From Bdellovibrionales bacterium (GTDB taxonomy: Bacteria; Bdellovibrionota; Bdellovibrionia; Bdellovibrionales; UBA1609): DNA of 64,000 bases. The position numbers and the translations under genes are program-made. The notes under the pieces are model-generated. The model searched no databases. It worked only from the letters and a program-made list of their open reading frames with translations, and had not been told where the DNA came from. Positions 16,992-31,559 of the stretch are shown here, one piece after another (position 1 is the stretch's first letter; each line of letters opens with the position of its first letter). The stretch is taken from NCBI GenBank assembly GCA_965261545.1, contig CBDHDF010000007.1, positions 128,001 through 192,000 on the forward strand, read 5' to 3'.

Positions 16992-18530
16992 CTATTGTGA
17001 TTGTTCAGGTTGTAATTTCTTCTTAGAAGTGGAATCGAATTTTTTGTGGAAAAGAAATTTGGAAGGTACAGCCTTCCAATTACCAGTGTTTAGAGAAATT
17101 CTATAGTCAGTAGGACATCCACCACGGCCTGTTCCTGCCACACGGTACAGCAAAGCCATCGCAAGATGAAATCTAGGACCCTGAAAATAATGAATTTCAA
17201 TACTTTTATTTTCAGAAGGTGCAAATACATAAGGCTGAGAGGTACAGCGCCACCTCGGAGAATGAAGAGAGTCATCTTGGAGAATAGTCTTTCCGTCGAG
17301 AATAACTCTCATTCCATCGTCAGAGACCATGGCAAACTCATAGGACTTTGATTTTGATCCATTGTTGGGCATAATAAATCCTGAAATACGCAATGAGAAC
17401 CACTCATAGAGTGTATCACCATTTAGGTCTTTAATAAGGGTTCCATCATTGGTTTGAAATCCGTCTTCAAAATATAGAAAAGGGGTATTGACTTGATTCA
17501 AATGGATAAGAGTTGGAATTCTCGTGCCATGTTTCAAATAGCCATCGAGTTTCTTATTATATTTGGTTTGAGAAGAATTCAGGTAATATATATATCCAGC
17601 AAGTCCGTTGGATGAAGTGGAGCATTGTGAATTTTTAAATGGATTACAGATAATTTCCACGGTGTTTACGTTCCAAGAATGACTTTTTTTGCTGGTATCG
17701 CCATTGTTATCAACAGCTACGACATGAAAACTATGTGTTCCAACACGAAGATTTGTTAGAGTTTCTGAGTGGGATGCTTGGCAGCTCCTAGGCTCTTCGT
17801 CATTCAATTGACATGTCACTGAACTCACGCCATCTGAATCTGTCACCAGTAGGCTGATAAGGGCGTCTTTATTTTCTGCATGATCTATAGGAGCTTGATT
17901 AAAATTAATGATAGGACCTTCTCCCGGAGTTTTTTTAAGTACGGGCTCTGGAGGAGGCTCTTTTTTTGGTGGACTTGCAGGTGCGGGCTCTGGAGGAGGC
18001 TCTTTTTTTGGTGGACTTGCAGGTGCGGGCTCTGGAGGAGGCTCTTTTTCTGGTGGACTTGCAGGTGCGGGCTCTGGAGGAGGCTCTTTTTCTGGTGGAC
18101 TTGCAGGTGCGGGCTCTTGAGGAGGCTCTTTTTCTGGTGGGCTTGCAGGTGCGAGTTCTTGAGGAGGCTCTTTTTCTGGCGGACTTGCAGGTGCGGGCTC
18201 TGGAGGAGGCTCTTTTTCTGGTGGACTTGCAGGCGCGGGCTCTGGAGAAGGCTCTTTTTCTGGTGGACTTGCAGGTGCGGGCTCTGGAGAAGGCTCTTTT
18301 TCTGGTGGACTTGCAGGTGCGGGTTCTGGAGGAGGTTCTTTTTCTGGTGGGCTTGGTGCAGGTTCTATTTTGGGAGGATCCAATTGCGTTGTCACAATGG
18401 GGTTTGGATTCAAGGGTTGTTGGGCCTCTTGCTCAGAACTTGGTTTGATGAACGCGCTTCTTTGTTCAAGGCAACCCACTAAAAAAAACAAAGATATTAA
18501 GAGTGTCAGTAGTGAAAAAGAAATTCTCAT
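16992..18530 (-). CDS. Lipoprotein with Pro-rich repeat stalk, Ig-like domain and C-terminal PA14 domain
   Basis: SD GGAG plus MRISF...LVGC lipobox; EWFSLRISG, SDDGMRV and HYFQGPRFHLA PA14 motifs. Confidence 0.85.
   Translation of the reverse strand: MRISFSLLTLLISLFFLVGCLEQRSAFIKPSSEQEAQQPLNPNPIVTTQLDPPKIEPAPSPPEKEPPPEPAPASPPEKEPSPEPAPASPPEKEPSPEPAPASPPEKEPPPEPAPASPPEKEPPQELAPASPPEKEPPQEPAPASPPEKEPPPEPAPASPPEKEPPPEPAPASPPKKEPPPEPAPASPPKKEPPPEPVLKKTPGEGPIINFNQAPIDHAENKDALISLLVTDSDGVSSVTCQLNDEEPRSCQASHSETLTNLRVGTHSFHVVAVDNNGDTSKKSHSWNVNTVEIICNPFKNSQCSTSSNGLAGYIYYLNSSQTKYNKKLDGYLKHGTRIPTLIHLNQVNTPFLYFEDGFQTNDGTLIKDLNGDTLYEWFSLRISGFIMPNNGSKSKSYEFAMVSDDGMRVILDGKTILQDDSLHSPRWRCTSQPYVFAPSENKSIEIHYFQGPRFHLAMALLYRVAGTGRGGCPTDYRISLNTGNWKAVPSKFLFHKKFDSTSKKKLQPEQSQ
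17944..18365 (-). repeat. ~10 tandem units of 42 bp encoding PPEPAPASPPEKEP
   Basis: Directly visible tandem array. Confidence 0.97.
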
Positions 18531-18771: not shown

Positions 18772-18915
18772 ATGAGTGCAGGTTGGCAGTTTGGAATCGA
18801 CCGGGGGGGGCCTTTACCGATATTGTGGCGCGCAGGCCGGATGGTGGCTATGTGATTCGTAAGATGCTTTCCGACGCTCCGGAGGACGAAGACGATGCTG
18901 CACTCCAGGGCAGTG
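18772..18915 (+). pseudogene. 5-oxoprolinase/hydantoinase N-terminal remnant
   Basis: WQFGIDRGG/AFTDIVARRPDG...DAALQG, with a frameshift at the G-run. Ends at the recombinase element. Confidence 0.8.
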
Positions 18916-20529
18916 ACTCCCCGGACACAATGGCAAACTTTTGGATGTTGGCACAACGTGTCGAACCACAATTTCATTTGTCTTAATGTTCAGCTCAACC
19001 TCCTTTACCAGTAGCCTTACAATCTCCTTTTTTTGCTCAAAACTCAATACCTTTAAGTTGGCACTCACTTTTTTTTGGAATTCTTGGAGTTGATCTACAA
19101 GCTGTAATTGTTGTCCTTCTTGCCTTTGCTCATACTCTAAAGATTGCTTTTCATTTTCAAGTTGCTTTATTTTGCCTCTTATTTTTTTTAATCGTGACTC
19201 TATTTCTGATAGATTTAGAGTTCCATTTTGATAAAGATCCAAGAGACGTTCCTTTTCATGTGTTATTTGACGAATCTCCTGAGCCTTTTTTGCAATTAAT
19301 TTTTCCAATGATTGTTGTTGGCCTTTTTGCTCATGAATTCTATTTGTATACTCATCTATAACTGCCTGAGGATTTTCAAGTAATTTAACTGTTTGTTCCC
19401 AAACTAAGTCATCTAAAACTTCAACTCTTACGGGATGAGATGAGCAAACTCTACCTTTAGCTGGCCATCTATGACCATCTTGTCCCATACAGCGATAATA
19501 ACAACGCTTATACCTTGAATTAGAAGCGGGTTTGCCATAGATCGAATAACCACACTCTTTGCATCGTAAAAGACCACTTAACAAATACTCATATTTTTTA
19601 TTATTCCGAGGGGAAAGTTTTTTGTTAGTTTCCAATTGACTGGATGCATCTTGAAAAGTTTTTGAAGAAATTATAGATGGAACGGGAATATATATCCAAT
19701 CCTTTTTATTTCGATCGGAAGAGCTTGATTTAGGATTTTTTGGATAAAAATTATTGTCTCTTGCTAACTTGGTTGGACGCAACCTTTCTACCTGGATAGT
19801 CTTTCTAAAAGCAGCTTGTCCATAATAAGCGGGGTTTTTAAGCATACACCAAACAGTTGAACGCTCCCAAATACCTTGTTGTTTTTTAGTAGGCACCCCC
19901 CTTATATTTAATTCCTTTGCAATTGCTCTAATACTTAGTTTGTTTCGGCAATACATTTGAAAAACATCTTTAACAACTTTAGACTCTTCTGGATGGACCT
20001 CATATCGTGCGTCAGCGGAGTCTGCTTTCGGAATATATATATAACCATAGGGAGCTCCACATAAAACGCTAACAAAGCCCTTAGAAGCCTTTTGAAGTTT
20101 ACCCCTTCGACTTCTTTCCATAATTTTTTCTCTTTCATATTCTGAAATGACTCCTTGTATTTGTAGCAAAAGCTGATCTTCGGGTGAATTTGTAATATCT
20201 CTATTAGAAAAAATAATTTCAACACCTAGCCTCTGAAATTCTTCAATTAGAATCAATTGATGGGCATATTTACGAGCTAATCTGTCTGGACATAACACAA
20301 GTACCTTTGTAACCTCCCCAGAAAAAGCTTTGTCGCGAAGGGAGTCTAAAGCAGGACGAACAAGGGTGGCACCACTCACACCATTATCCGTAAATATAAG
20401 ATCCTCCTCTACACAAAAGCTGTGTTCCTTAGCGAAATCGTGAAGACTAGAAATCTGTGAATCAATGGTTCCCTCTTGAGCTTGTTTATCTGAGGACACT
20501 CGACAATAAAGAGCTACTGATGTTTCCAT
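18814..20529 (-). CDS. Large serine recombinase (resolvase, recombinase and Zn-ribbon domains)
   Basis: YCRVSS catalytic motif, DRLAR, APYGY, LLSGLLRCKECG. The ORF runs through the terminal repeat (LPLCPGS) and takes its stop from flanking DNA. Confidence 0.93.
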   Translation of the reverse strand: METSVALYCRVSSDKQAQEGTIDSQISSLHDFAKEHSFCVEEDLIFTDNGVSGATLVRPALDSLRDKAFSGEVTKVLVLCPDRLARKYAHQLILIEEFQRLGVEIIFSNRDITNSPEDQLLLQIQGVISEYEREKIMERSRRGKLQKASKGFVSVLCGAPYGYIYIPKADSADARYEVHPEESKVVKDVFQMYCRNKLSIRAIAKELNIRGVPTKKQQGIWERSTVWCMLKNPAYYGQAAFRKTIQVERLRPTKLARDNNFYPKNPKSSSSDRNKKDWIYIPVPSIISSKTFQDASSQLETNKKLSPRNNKKYEYLLSGLLRCKECGYSIYGKPASNSRYKRCYYRCMGQDGHRWPAKGRVCSSHPVRVEVLDDLVWEQTVKLLENPQAVIDEYTNRIHEQKGQQQSLEKLIAKKAQEIRQITHEKERLLDLYQNGTLNLSEIESRLKKIRGKIKQLENEKQSLEYEQRQEGQQLQLVDQLQEFQKKVSANLKVLSFEQKKEIVRLLVKEVELNIKTNEIVVRHVVPTSKSLPLCPGSHCPGVQHRLRPPERRKASYESHSHHPACAPQYR

Positions 20530-20571
20530 TTTTAACCTCCATTATTTTCTGTTGTTTTACTTTCTGCTTTA

Positions 20572-22112
20572 GTAACTGCTCGCACCTTACATAGGAATTT
20601 CTCCCTTGAGAGCCATATTGATGGCCTCTAAGGAAGAGAACCCCTTGTTTCTCATAGTCTTGACATAACTGGTAATCCGACAAAAGTGCTTTGCCATTTT
20701 TGCTGTCCTGAAGCAACCTGATACTTTCTTTTTCACCTTATTCATTCTCAAGTCTCGCTCGGCTCTGTTGTTGGTTGGGTCCACCTCTTTCACTTTGGCA
20801 AAGAGAAGGATTTCTGCTTCATATTTTTTAAAGCGGAGCCAAAGATTTTGAGCATCTGTATGTTTCACTCGTCCTTTTTTACCATTCTTCTCTGGAAAGG
20901 GAGGAAGCTCCTTTAAAGCCCTTGTGAGAATATTCCTATACCTCCTCTGAAGAGTTTGATACTCCTTTCGAGTCAATATCTTAGATTTTCTTTTTTGGAC
21001 CAATTCAACAGCTTCCTGAAGAAGTTTTTTCAGATTGGTGGCCCATTTCGAACCAGAGCTATCCTCCACAAATTTCAATTCCCTAAGAAGATGGGCAACG
21101 CACAGAGCATGAAGCATATCTGTATAAGAAAAATAGGGACTCCAACAGTCATGTACCAAGATACCTCCATACCTGTCCAATATGCCAATATCTTTGATGG
21201 CATCTTTTCCACGGGAAGGATGGATGAACTGCAATGTAAGATCACCACAGCTATAAGTATGAATCCAGTAGTTCTTCTTATTGACTCTCATGGAGGTTTC
21301 GTCAACATGAATGACCACAGACTCAAGGATTTGTTGTTTTGCCCATTGTTCCCACTCTTGAAGAGATTCGCTCAGTTGAGAAATATACTTCAACATGGTT
21401 GAGGGTGAGATAAAGCGGCCAACGAGACCCTTGTAGTGTTCACCAACACGCTGGAGAGACATCATTTGAATGACAATAAAATTAATAATTGAGGCCCTAA
21501 TTCCAATACCATATTGGATCGGTCCATCTATGCCCTCTGGGAATGGGCCTTTGTTTTCTGTACCACATTCATGGCACTCTTTGATTTCAGAGGTGACAGT
21601 GTGGGTGTTTATCTCATAGAGAATATCAATTTTTTTACGCTCTTCGGAGCCTTTCATCTCAGTTTCCTTCAAATCGGCCCCACATTTAGAGCAATTTGAT
21701 GGAGACACTGTTTCCTTGCTCTCTGTGTCCTTACTGTTATCGAGCCTTGATCCTTTCTTGCTGTCTTCCTCAGCCCCTTCCTTATTACGGTTCCCATTGC
21801 TACCAGAGTTCTGAGAAGGGGGCAGCCCACTATTGCTGGAGTTTTTACGAGTCTTTTTTTCCAAAAATAAAGTCACTACAACTGTGAGAATGGTCAGCAT
21901 GGACTGAATAAATAGTTTAGTCTCTCGTGGGATACTCTTGTCAGAAAGAATCTTCTTAGATTCCTTCTGGAGGTTTTCAATTTCGCTTCGTAAGGATTGT
22001 TTTCTTGTATTCACGAAAGAATTATTAAATGGGGAGGCTTGAGAATCAATACTTTAGTATAAAAATGGTCTTTAGGCTAAAAGTCTGGTGTAGAAGGGGT
22101 GCGAGCAGTTAC
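20572..22112 (-). mobile_element. IS66-family element, single-ORF (ISBst12-like)
   Basis: TIR GTAACTGCTCGCACC; 8-bp TSD CTGCTTTA. Confidence 0.93.
20587..22014 (-). CDS. IS66 family transposase
   Basis: KNSSNSGLPPSQ, HVDET, CVAHLLREL and TNNRAERDLR motifs. Confidence 0.94.
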   Translation of the reverse strand: MNTRKQSLRSEIENLQKESKKILSDKSIPRETKLFIQSMLTILTVVVTLFLEKKTRKNSSNSGLPPSQNSGSNGNRNKEGAEEDSKKGSRLDNSKDTESKETVSPSNCSKCGADLKETEMKGSEERKKIDILYEINTHTVTSEIKECHECGTENKGPFPEGIDGPIQYGIGIRASIINFIVIQMMSLQRVGEHYKGLVGRFISPSTMLKYISQLSESLQEWEQWAKQQILESVVIHVDETSMRVNKKNYWIHTYSCGDLTLQFIHPSRGKDAIKDIGILDRYGGILVHDCWSPYFSYTDMLHALCVAHLLRELKFVEDSSGSKWATNLKKLLQEAVELVQKRKSKILTRKEYQTLQRRYRNILTRALKELPPFPEKNGKKGRVKHTDAQNLWLRFKKYEAEILLFAKVKEVDPTNNRAERDLRMNKVKKKVSGCFRTAKMAKHFCRITSYVKTMRNKGFSSLEAINMALKGEIPM

Positions 22113-22295
22113 CTGCTTTAATTGTTTCTTTATTTTTGGAACAACAACTTCGTATGTCTGTTGAACCCGTGTGGCTTGGTCGCTTTGATAGACACTTTTT
22201 AACTGAGCTGTCCATGGATTTTGATGTTTTGTTTGGTGGGCCATTATCATTCCTTTGACTATGGTTCGAAGCTAAATGGGAAGAATCCTCAGGTG

Positions 22296-23712
22296 CAATG
22301 CCGTTTCCTTAAGCCACCACACCCCTCTGCCTCTGCGTTAAGCTATTTCTTTTAAAAGAACTCCCAGCGCTTTTGATAGACCTTTCATAGCTTCTTTTGA
22401 AGTGCCTCCTCTTCTCCATTGAAATCTTCATCAGCAACTTTATCTGCTTCCTAAATTTCTGATAGAGCCCCGCAACAAAAAGAGGGATGCTATCCATTAT
22501 GAAATCAAGAATCAGTTTAAAGTTAGGTTTTTTGTAGTCATTTTTTACCAACTGATTCACACTGTCTTCATCCTCATTTATGCTCATTTGAATCTTTGTA
22601 TAATTGAAGAGCCAAAAATAAGAATACAGCTCTTGCAATATTCCATTAAGGCTTGTTGAGTGCCACTGCTCCATTTTCATTGTCGATGTAAAATCACGAA
22701 ATGTCGTTTCTATTTCCCAACGACGAGAGTAAAGAGCAACCATATCCTTCTTGTCCAAGGAGCCATGCGGAAGATTAGTGGCCAAAACAGAGAACTCCCC
22801 AGTCTTTGGGTTTTTATACTTATAGAGATGAATGACCACCCCCTCAATAACCATTTGTGAATACCAACCTGGGCCATTAAATAAATTTACGATGGGGATA
22901 AAAGTAGAGCCTCGCTTACAACACGCAATAAAGAAGTTACTGGCTTGAGCATGGGCCTTAATAATCTCTGTAGATAAATAAAGCCTATCGTAGAGAGTTA
23001 TGCTATTACTCTCAAAACTACCTATCATTTGAATAGCATTGGCGATTTCGTTGAGAGCGGGAGAAAAGCAAAGATTCTTTGTCACACCCGATAAAACGTC
23101 ATAAGCATGAGATAGATACATACGTAAGAAATGAGTTTCCATCTCATTTGGGCAAGGGTACCCACAATAACCCTCCTTTAAAAGATCTTTAGAGCGAGGA
23201 AGTGCTAATTGGTCGCCATCTATGGCATAGATATAAAAACCATGAAACGTTTTTCTCAATGGTTCGTAGTCTGTAATCAGAGATTCAAAGATATCTTTGA
23301 AAAATAGGTAAGAAATACTTTGACGTATCTTGCTGAGACTGCTTTTGACTGGCATGAGAAGCAGGTCACCAAAATGAGTCCATACCGTCTTAAGAGCGAT
23401 TTGGTAGCCTTCGTAATTTGTTCCTGAAATAAGATAGATAATGGTAAAAAAGAAAATTTGAGGATTAAATTTTCGATTCCTTTTTTGTTTTTCTGGATCG
23501 ACAAGGTGCTCTGGCTTGAAGGAAGAATCAAGTTTTGGTAGAATAAAATGGTCATCTGTGACGCGAACTCGTCATTTGGGGGCTTTCGAGATCAATATTG
23601 GATTGCATGTGACTTACTCCTTGGTTGAGGGTTGGGTGTAAAATAAAACAAGTCTTATTCTTGTCGATTTATCTAATGATTTCAAGAGATTTTTCTTAAG
23701 GAAACGGCATTG
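22296..23712 (-). mobile_element. IS4-family element
   Basis: TIRs; 11-bp TSD ATCCTCAGGTG; ORF 22309-23355. Confidence 0.97.
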
Positions 23713-24005
23713 ATCCTCAGGTGGATGCCAACGATAGCGAGCATATTTACGACCAATTGCATAAAGTGAATGATTATATATATTTATGGAAATTTCAATG
23801 GAAAAGTTGTCTATTGTGTCCGGGGAGTTTGTCAGCCCCGTCCTTTCGAATATCTTTGCACACTACGCCTTTGACATTTGGTTCAAAGGTGCAGTCAAGA
23901 AGTACACGAGAGGACAAGTGGAAATGTATCGCTACTGCGATGACATCATATTCTGCTGTGAACTTCAGGAGGATGCTGAGAAGGTTTACAGATCACTCCA
24001 AGGAC

Positions 24006-27000
24006 CAATGCCGTTTCCTTAAGCCACCACACCCCTCTGCCTCTGCGTTAAGCTATTTCTTTTAAAAGAACTCCCAGCCCTTTTGATAGACCTTTCATAG
24101 CTTCTTTTGAAGTGCCTCCTCTTCTCCATTGAAATCTTCATCAGCAACTTTATCTGCTTCCTAAATTTCTGATAGAGCCCCGCAACAAAAAGGGGGATGC
24201 TATCCATTATGAAATCAAGAATCAGTTTAAAGTTAGGTTTTTTGTAGTCATTTTTTACCAACTGATTCACACTGTCTTCATCCTCATTTATGCTCATTTG
24301 AATCTTTGTATAATTGAAGAGCCAAAAATAAGAATACAGCTCTTGCAATATTCCATTAAGGCTTGTTGAGTGCCACTGCTCCATTTTCATTGTCGATGTA
24401 AAATCACGAAATGTCGTTTCTATTTCCCAACGACGAGAGTAAAGAGCAACCATATCCTTCTTGTCCAAGGAGCCATGCGGAAGATTAGTGGCCAAAACAG
24501 AGAACTCCCCAGTCTTTGGGTTTTTATACTTATAGAGATGAATGACCACCCCCTCAATAACCATTTGTGAATACCAACCTGGGCCATTAAATAAATTTAC
24601 GATGGGGATAAAAGTAGAGCCTCGCTTACAACGCGCAATAAAGAAGTTACTGGCTTGAGCATGGGCCTTAATAATCTCTGTAGATAAATAAAGCCTATCG
24701 TAGAGAGTTATGCTATTACTCTCAAAACTACCTATCATTTGAATAGCATTGGCGATTTCGTTGAGAGCGGGAGAAAAGCAAAGATTCTTTGTCACACCCG
24801 ATAAAACGTCATAAGCATGAGATAGATACATACGTAAGAAATGAGTTTCCATCTCATTTGGGCAAGGGTACCCACAATAACCCTCCTTTAAAAGATCTTT
24901 AGAGCGAGGAAGTGCTAATTGGTCGCCATCTATGGCATAGATATAAAAGCCATGAAACGTTTTTCTCAATGGTTCGTAGTCTGTAATCAGAGATTCAAAG
25001 ATATTTTTAAAAAATAGGTAAGAAATACTTTGACGTATCTTGCTGAGACTGCTTTTGACTGGCATGAGAAGCAGGTCACCAAAATGAGTCCATACCGTCT
25101 TAAGAGCGATTTGGTAGCCTTCGTAATTTGTTCCGGAAATAAGATAGATAATAGTAAAAAAGAAAATTTGAGGATTAAATTTTCGATTCCTTTTTTGTTT
25201 TTCTGGATCGACAAGGTGCTCTGGCTTGAAGGAAGAATCAAGTTTTGGTAGAATAAAATGGTCATCTGTGACGCGAACTCGTCATTTGGGGGCTTTCGAG
25301 ATCAATATTGGATTGCATGTGACTTACTCCTTGGTTGAGGGTTGGGTGTAAAATAAAACAAGTCTTATTCTTGTCGATTTATCTAATAATTTCAAGAGAT
25401 TTTTCTTAAGGAAACGAGCCTGTAAACTATTTTGTGTAACTGCCGAATCATATTAGGATGAACTATCATCCTGAAAGGAGAAGGCAGAATGGATATCAAG
25501 ACAATAGGCAAGGAACTAGCGAAGAACGTCAAGACCCAAAAGGATTTATCCGACATAACGGGTCAACTGATGAAGGTTGTTTTAGAGACGGCCCTTAATG
25601 CGGAAATGGACGATCACCTAGGTTATGAGAGGCATGAGAAGTCTGAGACCCGCAAATCCAACACTCGCAATGGTTACAGTAGAAAGACCATAAAGGGAGA
25701 GAAAGGCGAGGTGGAGCTTCAGGTCCCCCGTGACCGAAGTGCCTCCTTTGAACCTCAAGTCATTCCCAAGGGTAAGACTCGTCTTGAGGGCTTTGAAGAC
25801 AGTATCCTGACCCTCTATGCGAGGGGAATGACGACCAGGGATATTCAAGGAGCTATCAAAGACCTCTACCATGGTGCAGAGATATCCCACTCTGATAGCC
25901 AACGTGACGGATGCTGTTATTGATGAAGTTACGGCTTGGCAGAACCGCCCCTTGGATAGCACTTACCCTATCGTATTTTTGGACTGTATCGTGGTGAAGG
26001 TCCATCAAGACAAGAGAGTTATTAATAAGGCGATTTACCTAGCTCTTGGTATTACAGAGGAGGGTCAGAAAGACTTGTTGGGCCTATGGATTTCTGAAAA
26101 TGAGGGTTCAAAGTTTTGGTTGAGTGTTTTGACTGAGCTGCAAAATCGAGGGTTGAAAGATGTATTTATATTTTCTGTAGATGGTCTTACAGGTTTTCCT
26201 CAAGCCATTTCAGCGGCTTTTCCCAAGTCTAAAGTGCAACTGTGCATTGTCCATATGGTCCGCAATTCCCTTCGCTATGTTCCTTCCAAGGATATGAAAG
26301 CTGTCGCCCAAGACCTCAAGTCCATTTATGGCTCTACGACTCTGACAGAAGCTGAAAAGGCCCTTGAGGAATTTTGTACCAAGTGGTCTTCAAAGTATCC
26401 GAATATTGAAAAGTCTTGGCGTAGGAATTGGGACAATCTCATCACTATTTTCGATTATCCGGATGAAATCAGAAAGATTTTTTATACCACAAACGCCATA
26501 GAGTCGTTAAATAGCGTGATCCGCAAGGCGATCAGAAATCGTAAGATATTTCCCAGTGATCGGTCGGCTTTAAAAGTTGTATATTTAGCGATAAAAATGG
26601 CCTCTAAGCGATGGACACGACCATTACACAACTGGAAGCCAGCCATGAACAGGTTTGCCATTGAATACGGTGACCGTTTTGACAACTAAGTTTTTTAATA
26701 AGGTCCACCACCTGCCTTATAAGGGGGCTTAAAAGCCCCTCTAAGGCGTTGACAGAAGTACTGGAATACCGAGACTATGGTTAGGGTAATATAGTATGGG
26801 AACCTAAATACATGCCCTCTTGGTGCAGATTTGGGTTTCCATTTTTTTTCATATTTCATCCCAATGCTGGTATTTCTCGAATATCCTAAGTTAAAAAAAA
26901 TAAAAAAAGGGGGTAATATAGTATGGGAACCTAAACACATGAACCCTTTGATGAGATTGGAATTTCCATTTTTTTGAGAGAGCCATTGCTGATTTTTTTT

Positions 27001-27327: not shown

Positions 27328-28744
27328 CAATGCCGTTTCCTTAAGCCACCACACCCCTCTGCCTCTGCGTTAAGCTATTTCTTTTAAAAGAACTCCCAGC
27401 CCTTTTGATAGACCTTTCATAGCTTCTTTTGAAGTGCCTCCTCTTCTCCATTGAAATCTTCATCAGCAACTTTATCTGCTTCCTAAATTTCTGATAGAGC
27501 CCCGCAACAAAAAGAGGGATGCTATCCATTATGAAATCAAGAATCAGTTTAAAGTTAGGTTTTTTGTAGTCATTTTTTACCAACTGATTCACACTGTCTT
27601 CATCCTCATTTATGCTCATTTGAATCTTTGTATAATTGAAGAGCCAAAAATAAGAATACAGCTCTTGCAATATTCCATTAAGGCTTGTTGAGTGCCACTG
27701 CTCCATTTTCATTGTCGATGTAAAATCACGAAATGTCGTTTCTATTTCCCAACGACGAGAGTAAAGAGCAACCATATCCTTCTTGTCCAAGGAGCCATGC
27801 GGAAGATTAGTGGCCAAAACAGAGAACTCCCCAGTCTTTGGGTTTTTATACTTATAGAGATGAATGACCACCCCCTCAATAACCATTCGTGAATACCAAC
27901 CTGGGCCATTAAATAAATTTACAATGGGGATAAAAGTAGAGCCTCGCTTACAACGCGCAATAAAGAAGTTACTGGCTTGAGCATGGGCCTTAATAATCTC
28001 TGTAGATAAATAAAGCCTATCGTAGAGAGTTATGCTATTACTCTCAAAACTACCTATCATTTGAATAGCATTGGCGATTTCGTTCAGAGCGGGAGAATAG
28101 CAAAGATTCTTTGTCACACCCGATAAAACGTCATAAGCATGAGATAGATACATACGTAAGAAATGAGTTTCCATCTCATTTGGGCAAGGGTACCCACAAT
28201 AACCCTCCTTTAAAAGATCTTTAGAGCGAGGAAGTGCTAATTGGTCGCCATCTATGGCATAGATATAAAAACCATGAAACGTTTTTCTCAATGGTTCGTA
28301 GTCTGTAATCAAAGATTCAAAGATATCTTTGAAAAATAGGTAAGAAATACTTTGACGTATCTTGCTGAGACTGCTTTTGACTGGCATGAGAAGCAGGTCA
28401 CCAAAATGAGTCCATACCGTCTTAAGAGCGATTTGGTAGCCTTCGTAATTTGTTCCGGAAATAAGATAGATAATGGTAAAAAAGAAAATTTGAGGATTAA
28501 ATTTTCGATTCCTTTTTTGTTTTTCTGGATCGACAAGGTGCTCTGACTTGAAGGAAGAATCAAGTTTTGGTAGAATAAAATGGTCATCTGTGACGCGAAC
28601 TCGTCATTTGGGGGCTTTCGAGATCAATATTGGATTGCATGTGACTTACTCCTTGGTTGAGGGTTGGGTGTAAAATAAAACAAGTCTTATTCTTGTCGAT
28701 TTATCTAATAATTTCAAGAGATTTTTCTTAAGGAAACGGCATTG
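27328..28744 (-). mobile_element. IS4-family element, tandem partner of the 24006 copy
   Basis: CTCCAAGGAC occurs three times (23996, 27318, 28745). Confidence 0.97.
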
Positions 28745-29247
28745 CTCCAAGGACGAACCGAGAGGTTTTCCCTTAAGATGAATGTAGAGAAAACCAAGCG
28801 TATCACCTTTTCTAAAGCCAAGGCTCGACGAGGTGAGAAGCAAGGTACCTTCGACTTCTTAGGTTTCACCTTCTACATAAGTAAACGCAGAGGGCGCATA
28901 CTGCCCAAGATTAAATCCAATGGACGTAGAATAAGGAAGAAGCTACAGGTAGTCAAAGAGTGGTGCCGAGCCAACCGTCACAGAGGTACATTGTGCGAGC
29001 TGTGGGAGAGGTTTTGCAAGAAGCTCAGAGGACACGCCCAGTACTATGCTGTCTCCGATAATTACAAAGGAGTGAAGAATTTCTTTCACTACGCCATTAG
29101 GATTTTCTTCAAATGGATGAACAGACGTAGTCAGCGAAGATCTTTTGATTGGAATAAGTTTAACAGGTTCCTTGCTAACTTTCCTCCACCAAGGGTTCGC
29201 ATAGTACACAAGCTGTATTGATATAGTTGAGTGAGTAGAGTTATCGT

Positions 29248-29320: not shown

Positions 29321-31559
29321 AATGTTATCACATCTGTAATACTTCCCGGATATAATCTGTAAGCTATTGGAAGGCTAGCACTCTTAATATTGGAATCTAC
29401 TTTGAAGTTTTGACTTAAAATACCTAAATTGGTTTGAGCCAAATTCTCGCCATCTCTATTGTAACCTCTTTCCAAGAAGTCATTCTCAGAACCATAAGAG
29501 GAAATAGAAGTAATGTCGAACATGACGGCTTGAGAACTATCCTTATGGCTTTGAATCCAATTCATAAAAAAATTTTCTATAGCATCTTCATCATTACCAA
29601 TAATAGATAGAAATTTACTTATTAATTTTGAATTCAGATTATGATCATTTGAAACATAAGAAGCCTCACACCATAAAGGGCAATGCCGTTTCCTTAAGCC
29701 ACCACACCCCTCTGCCTCTGCGTTAAGCTATTTCTTTTAAAAGAACTCCCAGCCCTTTTGATAGACCTTTCATAGCTTCTTTTGAAGTGCCTCCTCTTCT
29801 CCATTGAAATCTTCATCAGCAACTTTATCTGCTTCCTAAATTTCTGATAGAGCCCCGCAACAAAAAGGGGGATGCTATCCATTATGAAATCAAGAATCAG
29901 TTTAAAGTTAGGTTTTTTGTAGTCATTTTTTACCAACTGATTCACACTGTCTTCATCCTCATTTATGCTCATTTGAATCTTTGTATAATTGAAGAGCCAA
30001 AAATAAGAATACAGCTCTTGCAATATTCCATTAAGGCTTGTTGAGTGCCACTGCTCCATTTTCATTGTCGATGTAAAATCACGAAATGTCGTTTCTATTT
30101 CCCAACGACGAGAGTAAAGAGCAACCATATCCTTCTTGTCCAAGGAGCCATGCGGAAGATTAGTGGCCAAAACAGAGAACTCCCCAGTCTTTGGGTTTTT
30201 ATACTTATAGAGATGAATGACCACCCCCTCAATAACCATTTGTGAATACCAACCTGGGCCATTAAATAAATTTACGATGGGGATAAAAGTAGAGCCTCGC
30301 TTACAACGCGCAATAAAGAAGTTACTGGCTTGAGCATGGGCCTTAATAATCTCTGTAGATAAATAAAGCCTATCGTAGAGAGTTATGCTATTACTCTCAA
30401 AACTACCTATCATTTGAATAGCATTGGCGATTTCGTTGAGAGCGGGAGAATAGCAAAGATTCTTTGTCACACCCGATAAAACGTCATAAGCATGAGATAG
30501 ATACGTACGTAAGAAATGAGTTTCCATCTCATTTGGGCAAGGGTACCACAATAACCCTCCTTTAAAAGATCTTTAGAGCGAGGAAGTGCTAATTGGTCGC
30601 CATCTATGGCATAGATATAAAAGCCATGAAACGTTTTTCTCAATGGTTCGTAGTCTGTAATCAGAGATTCAAAGATATTTTTAAAAAATAGGTAAGAAAT
30701 ACTTTGACGTATCTTGCTGAGACTGCTTTTGACTGGCATGAGAAGCAGGTCACCAAAATGAGTCCATACCGTCTTAAGAGCGATTTGGTAGCCTTCGTAA
30801 TTTGTTCCGGAAATAAGATAGATAATAGTAAAAAAGAAAATTTGAGGATTAAATTTTCGATTCCTTTTTTGTTTTTCTGGATCGACAAGGTGCTCTGGCT
30901 TGAAGGAAGAATCAAGTTTTGGTAGAATAAAATGGTCATCTGTGACGCGAACTCGTCATTTGGGGGCTTTCGAGATCAATATTGGATTGCATGTGACTTA
31001 CTCCTTGGTTGAGGGTTGGGTGTAAAATAAAACAAGTCTTATTCTTGTCGATTTATCTAATAATTTCAAGAGATTTTTCTTAAGGAAACGGCATTGCCAT
31101 AAAGGGTAAAGGTAATAGGGCTCTTTTGTAATGATTTTAAAAAAAGATAAATAAAGAATTTGTTCATAATCATCTGGAAAAGATTTTTTAAGTATTTGTA
31201 TCAAACCTAATCTCTTGCTAATGTATTTCAATAAATGGAGAGAACCAATATCTTGGGAAGATGTTGGAATACTGGGTTGAGATTTAGGAATTAGTTTACC
31301 TGTTGATGGGTCCTTTTTGCCAAGGTAAACCTTTTTAGAACGAGATTGTTTCTTCTCTTTGTCCCAAGAGCTTGTGGACCTATAGAGGTAAGTTTGGCCC
31401 TTTATTTCTTGCTCATATATAGAAGACATGACCACAATTATGGCTATGAATGCAACGCGTTGTCAAGACTTTAAAAGGATAAGCATTCAATATATTCGAC
31501 TTCAGAGCAAAAACTAGACTTTAATCCACAACCTAGCGATAACTGAAGAAGATTTCAGG
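29321..31559 (-). mobile_element. Second, diverged IS1634 element (5' part only), hit by IS4 and by the group II intron
   Basis: Transposase pieces at 31107-31435 and 29321-29680 (FDITSISSY, GYNRDGE). End GATTTCAGG at 31559 matches the copy-a terminus. Confidence 0.85.
29681..31096 (-). mobile_element. IS4-family element, transposase frameshifted
   Basis: TSD CCATAAAGGG; 1-bp deletion near 30546. Confidence 0.96.

Follow-up and report, generated by a model that had tools for sequence, protein, structure and literature searches.

How can a recombinase gene that appears to have no stop codon of its own, and that ends in whatever sequence lies beyond a terminal repeat, serve a mobile element, and where would such an element insert? 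The question is raised by a locus at 18916..23828 of a 64,000-nucleotide stretch of a Bdellovibrionales bacterium genome (contig CBDHDF010000007.1, positions 128,001 to 192,000; the whole stretch is referred to here as the window), where a large serine recombinase (LSR) gene lies between inverted repeats. The locus is probably an integrative element of insertion sequence (IS) size that is excised to a circle by serine-integrase chemistry and re-integrated, that splits its LSR gene at its own attachment (att) site, and that homes mainly to one codon of group II intron reverse transcriptase (RT) genes.

Copies, ends and relatives of the element

The genome holds seven uninterrupted copies of the element, two interrupted copies with both ends, and two single-end fragments. 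These 11 copies and fragments are spread over six distinct sites; the intact 1,936-bp copies are 97-100% identical, and empty alleles of their sites exist. The terminal repeats are 27 nt long and complementary at 24/27 positions (89%), and all 20 genomic matches to the 27-mer with up to five mismatches lie at element ends. Filled and empty alleles give the junction layout in this genome as flank, 2-nt core, 1-nt spacer and repeat. The LSR products differ by copy (540, 544 and 571 aa, and one with a longer tail). Judged from sequence comparison, the element is thus multi-copy, has precise ends, uses a 2-bp core without target duplication, has empty counterparts of its sites and prefers RT genes.

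The window copy is interrupted by two nested ISs of the IS66 family and the IS4 type. Their removal leaves 1,936 bp, with one and three differences from two uninterrupted copies, and this unit contains only the LSR gene and a small open reading frame (ORF), with no phage structural or replication modules. The only DDE transposase genes in the span are those of the nested ISs. The original prediction, made from the letters of the window, had described a minimal, LSR-driven, non-DDE element of about 1.94 kb with 27-bp inverted ends and no phage genes, and had looked for several copies that share their ends and differ in their flanks and LSR C-termini; on each of these points it is borne out. Its statement that target duplication is absent holds for the element, given the 2-bp core and the empty alleles elsewhere; the window copy itself is uninformative on this point because its flanks come from two different targets. 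The features of the locus are as follows.

18772..18912, plus strand: 5′ fragment of a hydantoinase/oxoprolinase gene, the left target half, with a frameshift in a G run
18913..18915, no strand: LSR-downstream junction, a 2-nt crossover core and 1-nt spacer (filled against empty sites; same anatomy in related loci)
18916..18942, minus strand: downstream inverted repeat (P arm), encoding the last LSR residues ahead of the joint (repeat search and family end profile)
18916..20529, minus strand: LSR gene, 538 codons within the element (PF00239, PF07508, PF13408 and structural model)
20486..20563, minus strand: 3′ part of the small ORF (69 aa), overlapping the LSR start
20572..22112, minus strand: nested IS66-family element with an 8-bp target duplication (PF03050)
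22113..22244, minus strand: 5′ part of the small ORF (69 aa), with a conserved strand and helix, a candidate directionality factor (alignment of 40 homologues, profile and complex model)
22296..23712, minus strand: nested IS4-type (DDE_Tnp_1) element with an 11-bp target duplication (PF01609)
23725..23826, minus strand: conserved LSR C-terminal segment of about 34 codons, without a start codon, fused to the LSR only once the ends join
23802..23828, minus strand: upstream inverted repeat (P′ arm; repeat search and family end profile)
23829..23832, no strand: upstream junction, a 2-nt spacer (the usual one plus one base) and 2-nt core (three empty alleles of that RT gene in the genome)
23831..24001, plus strand: 3′ half of a group II intron RT gene, from the codon preceding S-P of domain 4 (RVT_1; empty alleles read PQGSCVSP)

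The small ORF and the LSR gene share 44 nt at the LSR start, and the nested IS66 interrupts the small ORF around codon 42-44; a promoter scan found two candidates against 1.4 expected. The RT half on the right flank is truncated by another IS4 copy. The other halves of both the oxoprolinase and the RT target flank the copy at C10:793054-794989, where the oxoprolinase 3′ part matches Hydant_A_N. The two copies have seemingly exchanged flanks, either by a real rearrangement or by an assembly mis-join, and the left junction of the window copy is present in contigs of four public runs, all from one sample that may be the source sample. Exchange between copies would rearrange the host genome, as at the window locus.

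Species genomes yielded 346 relatives and metagenomes at least 501, and 160 loci were retained; matches also occur in 47 plasmid records, and a search of 40 related genomes at E 1e-50 gave none. Ends were called by a trained profile of the terminal 24 nt at a score of at least 12 (in-gene maximum 10.1, n=159), which scores the IS5-targeting clade low, so that IS5 ends are under-counted in the 98 upstream and 85 downstream ends found; these were later re-labelled by motif. Both ends were found in 66 of the 160 loci, 1,874-2,057 bp apart; the unit keeps a length of about 2 kb in many phyla. An open frame reaches 83 of the 85 downstream ends. Conserved sequence beyond the repeats, for which the original prediction had also provided, was not seen: in the 120 closest homologues conservation stops at the repeat-coded motif and the tails vary. 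Nor was a single att site inside a larger prophage or integrative and conjugative element (ICE), given six distinct sites and a unit of about 2 kb.

Within this genome the copies fall into two variants, A and B, that are 97% alike. Five variant-B copies, all with the same flanks, lie in one intron and may have been carried along as it spread; the sole marker of whether variant B entered the intron once or several times is one shared single-nucleotide polymorphism. That intron (L163:222-5900; C10:1010000-1018000) has units of a short tandem-repeat array as its insertion sites, occurs in tandem pairs, and has a 5′ end without the usual consensus start. Between the joined repeats, variants A and B have entirely different 4-nt sequences, with an inverted core among the differences, which suggests that the element core has been swapped with targets or flipped.

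A recombinase gene split by its own att site

The LSR carries Resolvase, Recombinase and zinc-ribbon domains, a coiled coil and a catalytic serine (Pfam and structural model), and Ser12 is invariant in 32 homologues. In the window copy the frame leaves via the repeat into the flank and runs to 18814 (ORF 18814-20529, minus strand, 571 aa), in agreement with the original prediction that the target supplies the C-terminus. The further claim, that the gene has no stop of its own, fails, as an LSR C-terminus and stop lie at the upstream end of the element and would come into frame in the circle. Across a joint with a 4-nt centre (1 nt, the 2-nt core and 1 nt between the two repeats), the LSR frame runs on into the upstream end, giving a predicted joined LSR of 645 aa for the intact copies.

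Evidence that this frame is used comes from related loci. All 98 loci keep the circle frame open over 26 codons or more, against 48.9 expected from shuffling, and it is stop-free over 20 codons past the repeat in 97 of 98, the other five frames scoring 26, 45, 64, 40 and 61. The extension is a conserved peptide in the close-clade alignment; among 18 sequences, differences at its three codon positions number 1218, 910 and 2080, and single changes are synonymous in 1031 cases and non-synonymous in 436. On these statistics, the extension frame is under purifying selection, and the upstream end encodes the LSR's own last 30-35 residues and stop, which only the circle brings into frame. The extension lacks a start codon, and targets that run in its direction are in another frame, so that its translation is most simply explained by the circle. 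An excised circle with an attP is implied by selection on the joined frame, and the target-derived LSR tails would then be by-products of integration.

That the copies are dead remnants of a prophage or ICE integration module, copied passively within introns and IS elements, is most improbable. The same cassette does serve phage WOVitA1 (see below), and the five variant-B copies may have travelled with their intron; against a passive origin stand intact copies of 97-100% identity at six sites with empty alleles, a constant unit of about 2 kb over many phyla, and selection on a frame that exists only in a circle.

The joined form predicted for the element has a natural counterpart in Wolbachia phage WOVitA1. 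The best phage match to the LSR is the WOVitA1 recombinase gwv_1156 (36% identical), which is nested within the family tree on a long branch, and the overlapping gene upstream, gwv_1155, is matched by the small-ORF profile (E 2.5e-8). In the particle-derived WOVitA1 record the 3′ end of the LSR gene holds a 4-nt centre with the family repeat consensus on either side, and the phage and prophage forms of the protein diverge from codon 535 (580 versus 551 aa). Of 109 natural tails, that of the phage form matches the extension profile best (E 3.6e-5). The attP of WOVitA1 was Sanger-sequenced, according to the accessible part of PMC5062602; in the available portions of that paper and of PMC9203015 the split gene, the inverted arms and a role for gwv_1155 go without mention. 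A near-palindromic attP with the predicted joint, which the original prediction had proposed for the joined ends, is therefore seen in nature in the sequence of the WO cassette; for the element itself it is a prediction, and no circle was found in the assembly, in four public runs or in viral contigs (detailed below).

Targets in mobile elements

Four of the six sites in this genome lie in group II intron RT genes. Three different RT genes were entered at the same codon, directly before S-P in PQGxx[V/A]SP, and a fourth in domain 0; the genome also contains 10 empty RT alleles, and two of the target sites are surrounded by group II intron RNA according to Rfam. Across the family, 13 of the 183 ends were too short and 170 were scorable. 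The RT domain-4 motif PQGxx[I/L/V]SP accounts for 108 of these in exact register, with six matches over all other registers combined, and a further 25 match IS motifs, two of them judged false. The two false labels, assigned by regular expression to L014 upstream and L035 downstream, were removed ahead of tree building. Pfam, in a check that covered 62 of 162 abutting frames, supported the flank labels for RT in 19/19 cases, IS5 in 14/14, IS256 in 4/5 and IS110 in 1/6. Insertions in RT genes have either orientation (15 versus 16).

On a FastTree phylogeny of 135 rows (50 without a target label), IS5 (20 rows), IS256 (4) and IS110 (4) targets each occupy one branch with support of 99-100, and RT targeting is spread over the backbone. 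Target class follows LSR clade, with three label changes against a shuffled mean of 25.6. At the level of sequence, these results establish that insertion in the family favours a single RT codon of group II introns, and that particular clades have shifted to IS5, IS256 or IS110 transposases. The inner repeat arms match the target arms at 52% and 43%. The rule for attB sites, as the accessible text of PMC11722253 gives it, leads one to expect a 5-bp inward shift; one RT target arm has such a shift (identity peak 0.42 at shift 5) and the other arm has none.

The original prediction had named Tn4451/Tn5397-type and multi-target LSRs as known cases of transposition through circles; a TndX/TnpX-like transposon of relaxed specificity does not describe the present element, the targets being conserved coding motifs of mobile elements, mostly group II RTs. 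The corresponding explanation, in which RT genes are entered merely as multi-copy and neutral DNA and are not recognised, is quite unlikely. It would account for the oxoprolinase gene, the RT domain-0 site and the site without a gene label used in this genome, and for the variety of the cores; it is hard to reconcile with the use of one codon in one register and both orientations across several phyla, with targets that follow LSR clade, with the resemblance of the inner repeat arms to target arms, or with an LSR that lacks DUF4368.

Targeted integration would proceed through the short core. The direct repeat at junctions, scored in 60 loci, is 2 bp in 38, 0 bp in 17, 1 bp in 4 and 4 bp in 1, and the cores on both sides are identical in 30 of 39 coherent pairs. 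Cores include AT, CT, GT, TA, AC and others, with no fixed dinucleotide. At the oxoprolinase site the empty core is AA, the upstream junction retains AA and the downstream junction has AC from the element, which points to insertion despite a core mismatch. The empty oxoprolinase site, with an intact frame, was found in one low-depth contig of the public runs. Six related loci have two left or two right target halves, a sign of either further exchange or assembly collapse.

Two plasmid members illustrate the RT site. The long-studied TOL plasmid pWW53 of Pseudomonas putida (NC_008275.1; L175:2685-4652) carries a member with both ends in the RT domain-4 site and two more recombinase genes downstream. 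A Bradyrhizobium plasmid (NZ_CP066357.1; L176:2419-4650) carries a three-gene, 2,232-bp variant that splits an annotated RT gene and has an extra ribbon-helix-helix gene ahead of the small ORF. The Bradyrhizobium 'ribbon-helix-helix' annotation was considered for the small ORF itself and rejected, as it denotes this separate third gene.

The small protein and comparison with known systems

A profile of the small ORF, built from 40 aligned homologues, matches directly ahead of the LSR gene in 137 of the 147 loci whose sequence extends far enough (39 of the matched loci were also used in building it), with three more matches slightly farther out and none elsewhere. The 69-aa protein matches no family in Pfam or NCBIfam, its matches in Atlas are all under 0.8, and its model is a single helix (predicted template modelling score, pTM, 0.32) without a match in the PDB. 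A complex model with the LSR scored 0.71, versus 0.00 for the best control, by a mark that 116 of 157 solved pairs and 2 of 215 mismatched pairs reach; at least 72% of contacts recur between runs, and the predicted local distance difference test (pLDDT) score of the partner is at least 66. The predicted interface comprises LSR residues 371-397, 484-509 and 518-528. In the model, the last LSR strand (518-528) is paired with a strand of the small protein, whose helix lies against the base of the coiled coil. The protein is thereby predicted to dock where directionality factors bind. Most verified directionality factors are predicted to add a strand to the same sheet, and extra C-terminal strands of SCCmec recombinases could block the factor site, in the part of Shin et al. 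consulted here (PMC12286644). The suggestion in the original prediction that the small ORF encodes a directionality factor gains support from the model as far as binding is concerned; the activity is a prediction.

The elements of a directional cycle can be proposed from these features. The element would excise to a circle; the circle would yield a full-length LSR, which would integrate; and the integrated copy would yield a truncated LSR with its last strand exposed. The small protein would bind this strand and the coiled-coil base and act as the directionality factor for excision, such that the circle-only tail and the small protein would compete for one LSR site. Homing to selfish elements would offer multi-copy, low-cost sites. 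In its full form the proposal is tentative, and we give it somewhat less than an even chance: a family of widespread, IS-sized hyperparasites in which the att site edits its own enzyme, the strand encoded by the circle fills the factor site and makes the LSR integration-only, and loss of the strand upon integration lets the 69-aa protein bind and renders the LSR excision-competent, with clades re-tuned to RT, IS5, IS256 and IS110 motifs and the cassette adopted by phage WO, where the factor would be gwv_1155. An unlikely version keeps the targeted, circle-forming element, has the tail only stabilise or activate the LSR, and casts the small protein in transcriptional control or as a chaperone. 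It draws on the junctions with an extra base, found twice in this genome (see below), and on the poor folding of the small protein alone (pTM 0.32) and its lack of a family; against it, the predicted interface (371-397, 484-509, 518-528) is the region named for directionality factors, and extra C-terminal strands could block that site, both as described in the available text of PMC12286644.

Several observations weigh against targeted, circle-mediated movement or against the directional cycle built on it. No circle joint of the element occurs in the assembly, and none in the contigs of the four public runs of one sample, a form of data that drops rare forms; viral contigs gave one chance match without an LSR and then no matches, and two viral loci of the family lack the joined form. 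Natural joined LSR proteins were absent from two sets of search matches (0/23 and 0/3). Two upstream junctions in this genome, that of the window copy included, hold one extra base, which would put the circle extension out of frame and leave a 12-codon tail; since these junctions break its frame, the extension may not be needed in cis. A long-read error as the origin of the extra base was ruled out, as short-read contigs show it at the RT3 junction. Cores are mismatched in 9 of the 39 pairs, which is odd for serine integrases, and some of these may be assembly artefacts. Two of the six sites here lie outside RT genes (the oxoprolinase gene and the site without a gene label), 37 of 170 ends have no assigned target, and related loci share kinship, so that counts overstate independence. 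The WOVitA1 tail match becomes weak (E 0.058) when the repeat-coded residues are removed, and the pass of the complex model may partly reflect likeness to solved integrase-factor complexes.

A minimal, non-DDE element parasitic on mobile elements would inactivate transposases and group II introns by insertion at conserved codons, and would promote genome rearrangement. The proposed cycle is a testable model of directionality in which the state of the DNA, circular or integrated, sets the LSR C-terminus, and it names gwv_1155 as a candidate directionality factor for phage WO. The related integrases with clade-specific targets form a natural series for the study of LSR specificity evolution and could supply compact integrase-factor pairs.

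The genome also holds other mobile DNA. A second, unrelated multi-copy LSR element (C10:13647-15233 and at least seven more copies, e.g. C7:537178-538764 and C3:8099-9685) encodes a 685-aa LSR of 24% identity with small upstream ORFs; it appears inserted in a transposase gene at the first conserved aspartate motif, and may also target mobile elements. The IS4-type element has well over 100 BLAST matches genome-wide, with copies in the window at 22296-23712, 24002-25400, 27341-28387 and 29694-30939, and on this evidence the genome is undergoing massive IS expansion. Another 3′ fragment of a group II intron RT lies amid IS copies at 28742-29221 of the window (by eye; no Pfam match), and about ten 42-bp tandem repeats at 17829-18416 encode a proline-rich linker of a lipoprotein-like gene with a PA14 domain.

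With regard to known systems, the element differs from DDE insertion sequences in having neither its own DDE transposase nor a target duplication. Archaeal SSV1-type split integrases and mycobacteriophage BPs also have an attP within a gene, such that integration alters a protein. Both use tyrosine recombinases; BPs alters its repressor, and the SSV1 integrase is split far from its C-terminus. The present element resembles them in its attP inside a gene and differs in its serine recombinase and in the alteration of the LSR near its C-terminus. Like Tn4451/Tn4453 (TnpX) and Tn5397 (TndX), and like the multi-targeting LSR clade of Durrant et al. (PMC10083194), this is a non-phage element that uses several sites and a 2-bp core without target duplication. 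The clade is further characterized by relaxed, AT-rich targets around a fixed core, a trait that the element lacks, and by DUF4368 in 63% of its members in the portion of Durrant et al. consulted (PMC10083194); DUF4368 has no match in the LSR or in the precomputed domains of its 120 closest homologues. The element also differs from that clade, so far as the same text describes it, in having no cargo and no fixed core, in its coding-motif targets and in an LSR gene split by its own att site. The available parts of the preprint and supplements (PMC10083194) make no mention of RT or intron targets and show no enrichment of transposase targets; the representative of cluster10375 resembles a family member by eye, with att sites unlike the ends of the element. 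Full-text literature searches, with most subscription papers and ISfinder outside their coverage, gave no published description of the family.

The IS607 family, in the accessible text of PMC6188088, is likewise IS-sized, with serine chemistry and no target duplication; unlike the element, it is free of terminal inverted repeats, and its DNA-binding domain is N-terminal; the LSR reaches 42 bits against the IS607 transposase model, for which the cut-off is 110. SPbeta, Bxb1 and phiC31 integrases share with the LSR the domain order, a near-symmetric attP and insertion in a conserved coding motif (available portions of PMC11722253 and PMC12286644), and systems with directionality factors share a small partner that is predicted at the junction of the second DNA-binding domain (DBD2) and the coiled coil and adds a strand (PMC12286644, in part). 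In contrast to these phages, the element is 1.9 kb in length, lacks phage genes, has many copies per genome, apparently tolerates core mismatch and targets mobile elements. The WOVitA1 module shares with the element a homologous LSR, an overlapping small ORF, and the repeat consensus with a 4-nt centre in its attP, and, as the accessible text of PMC5062602 describes it, differs in moving a 65-kb phage and entering a non-coding repeat. Collectively, these comparisons place the element as apparently an undescribed variant of serine-integrase elements that is parasitic on mobile elements.

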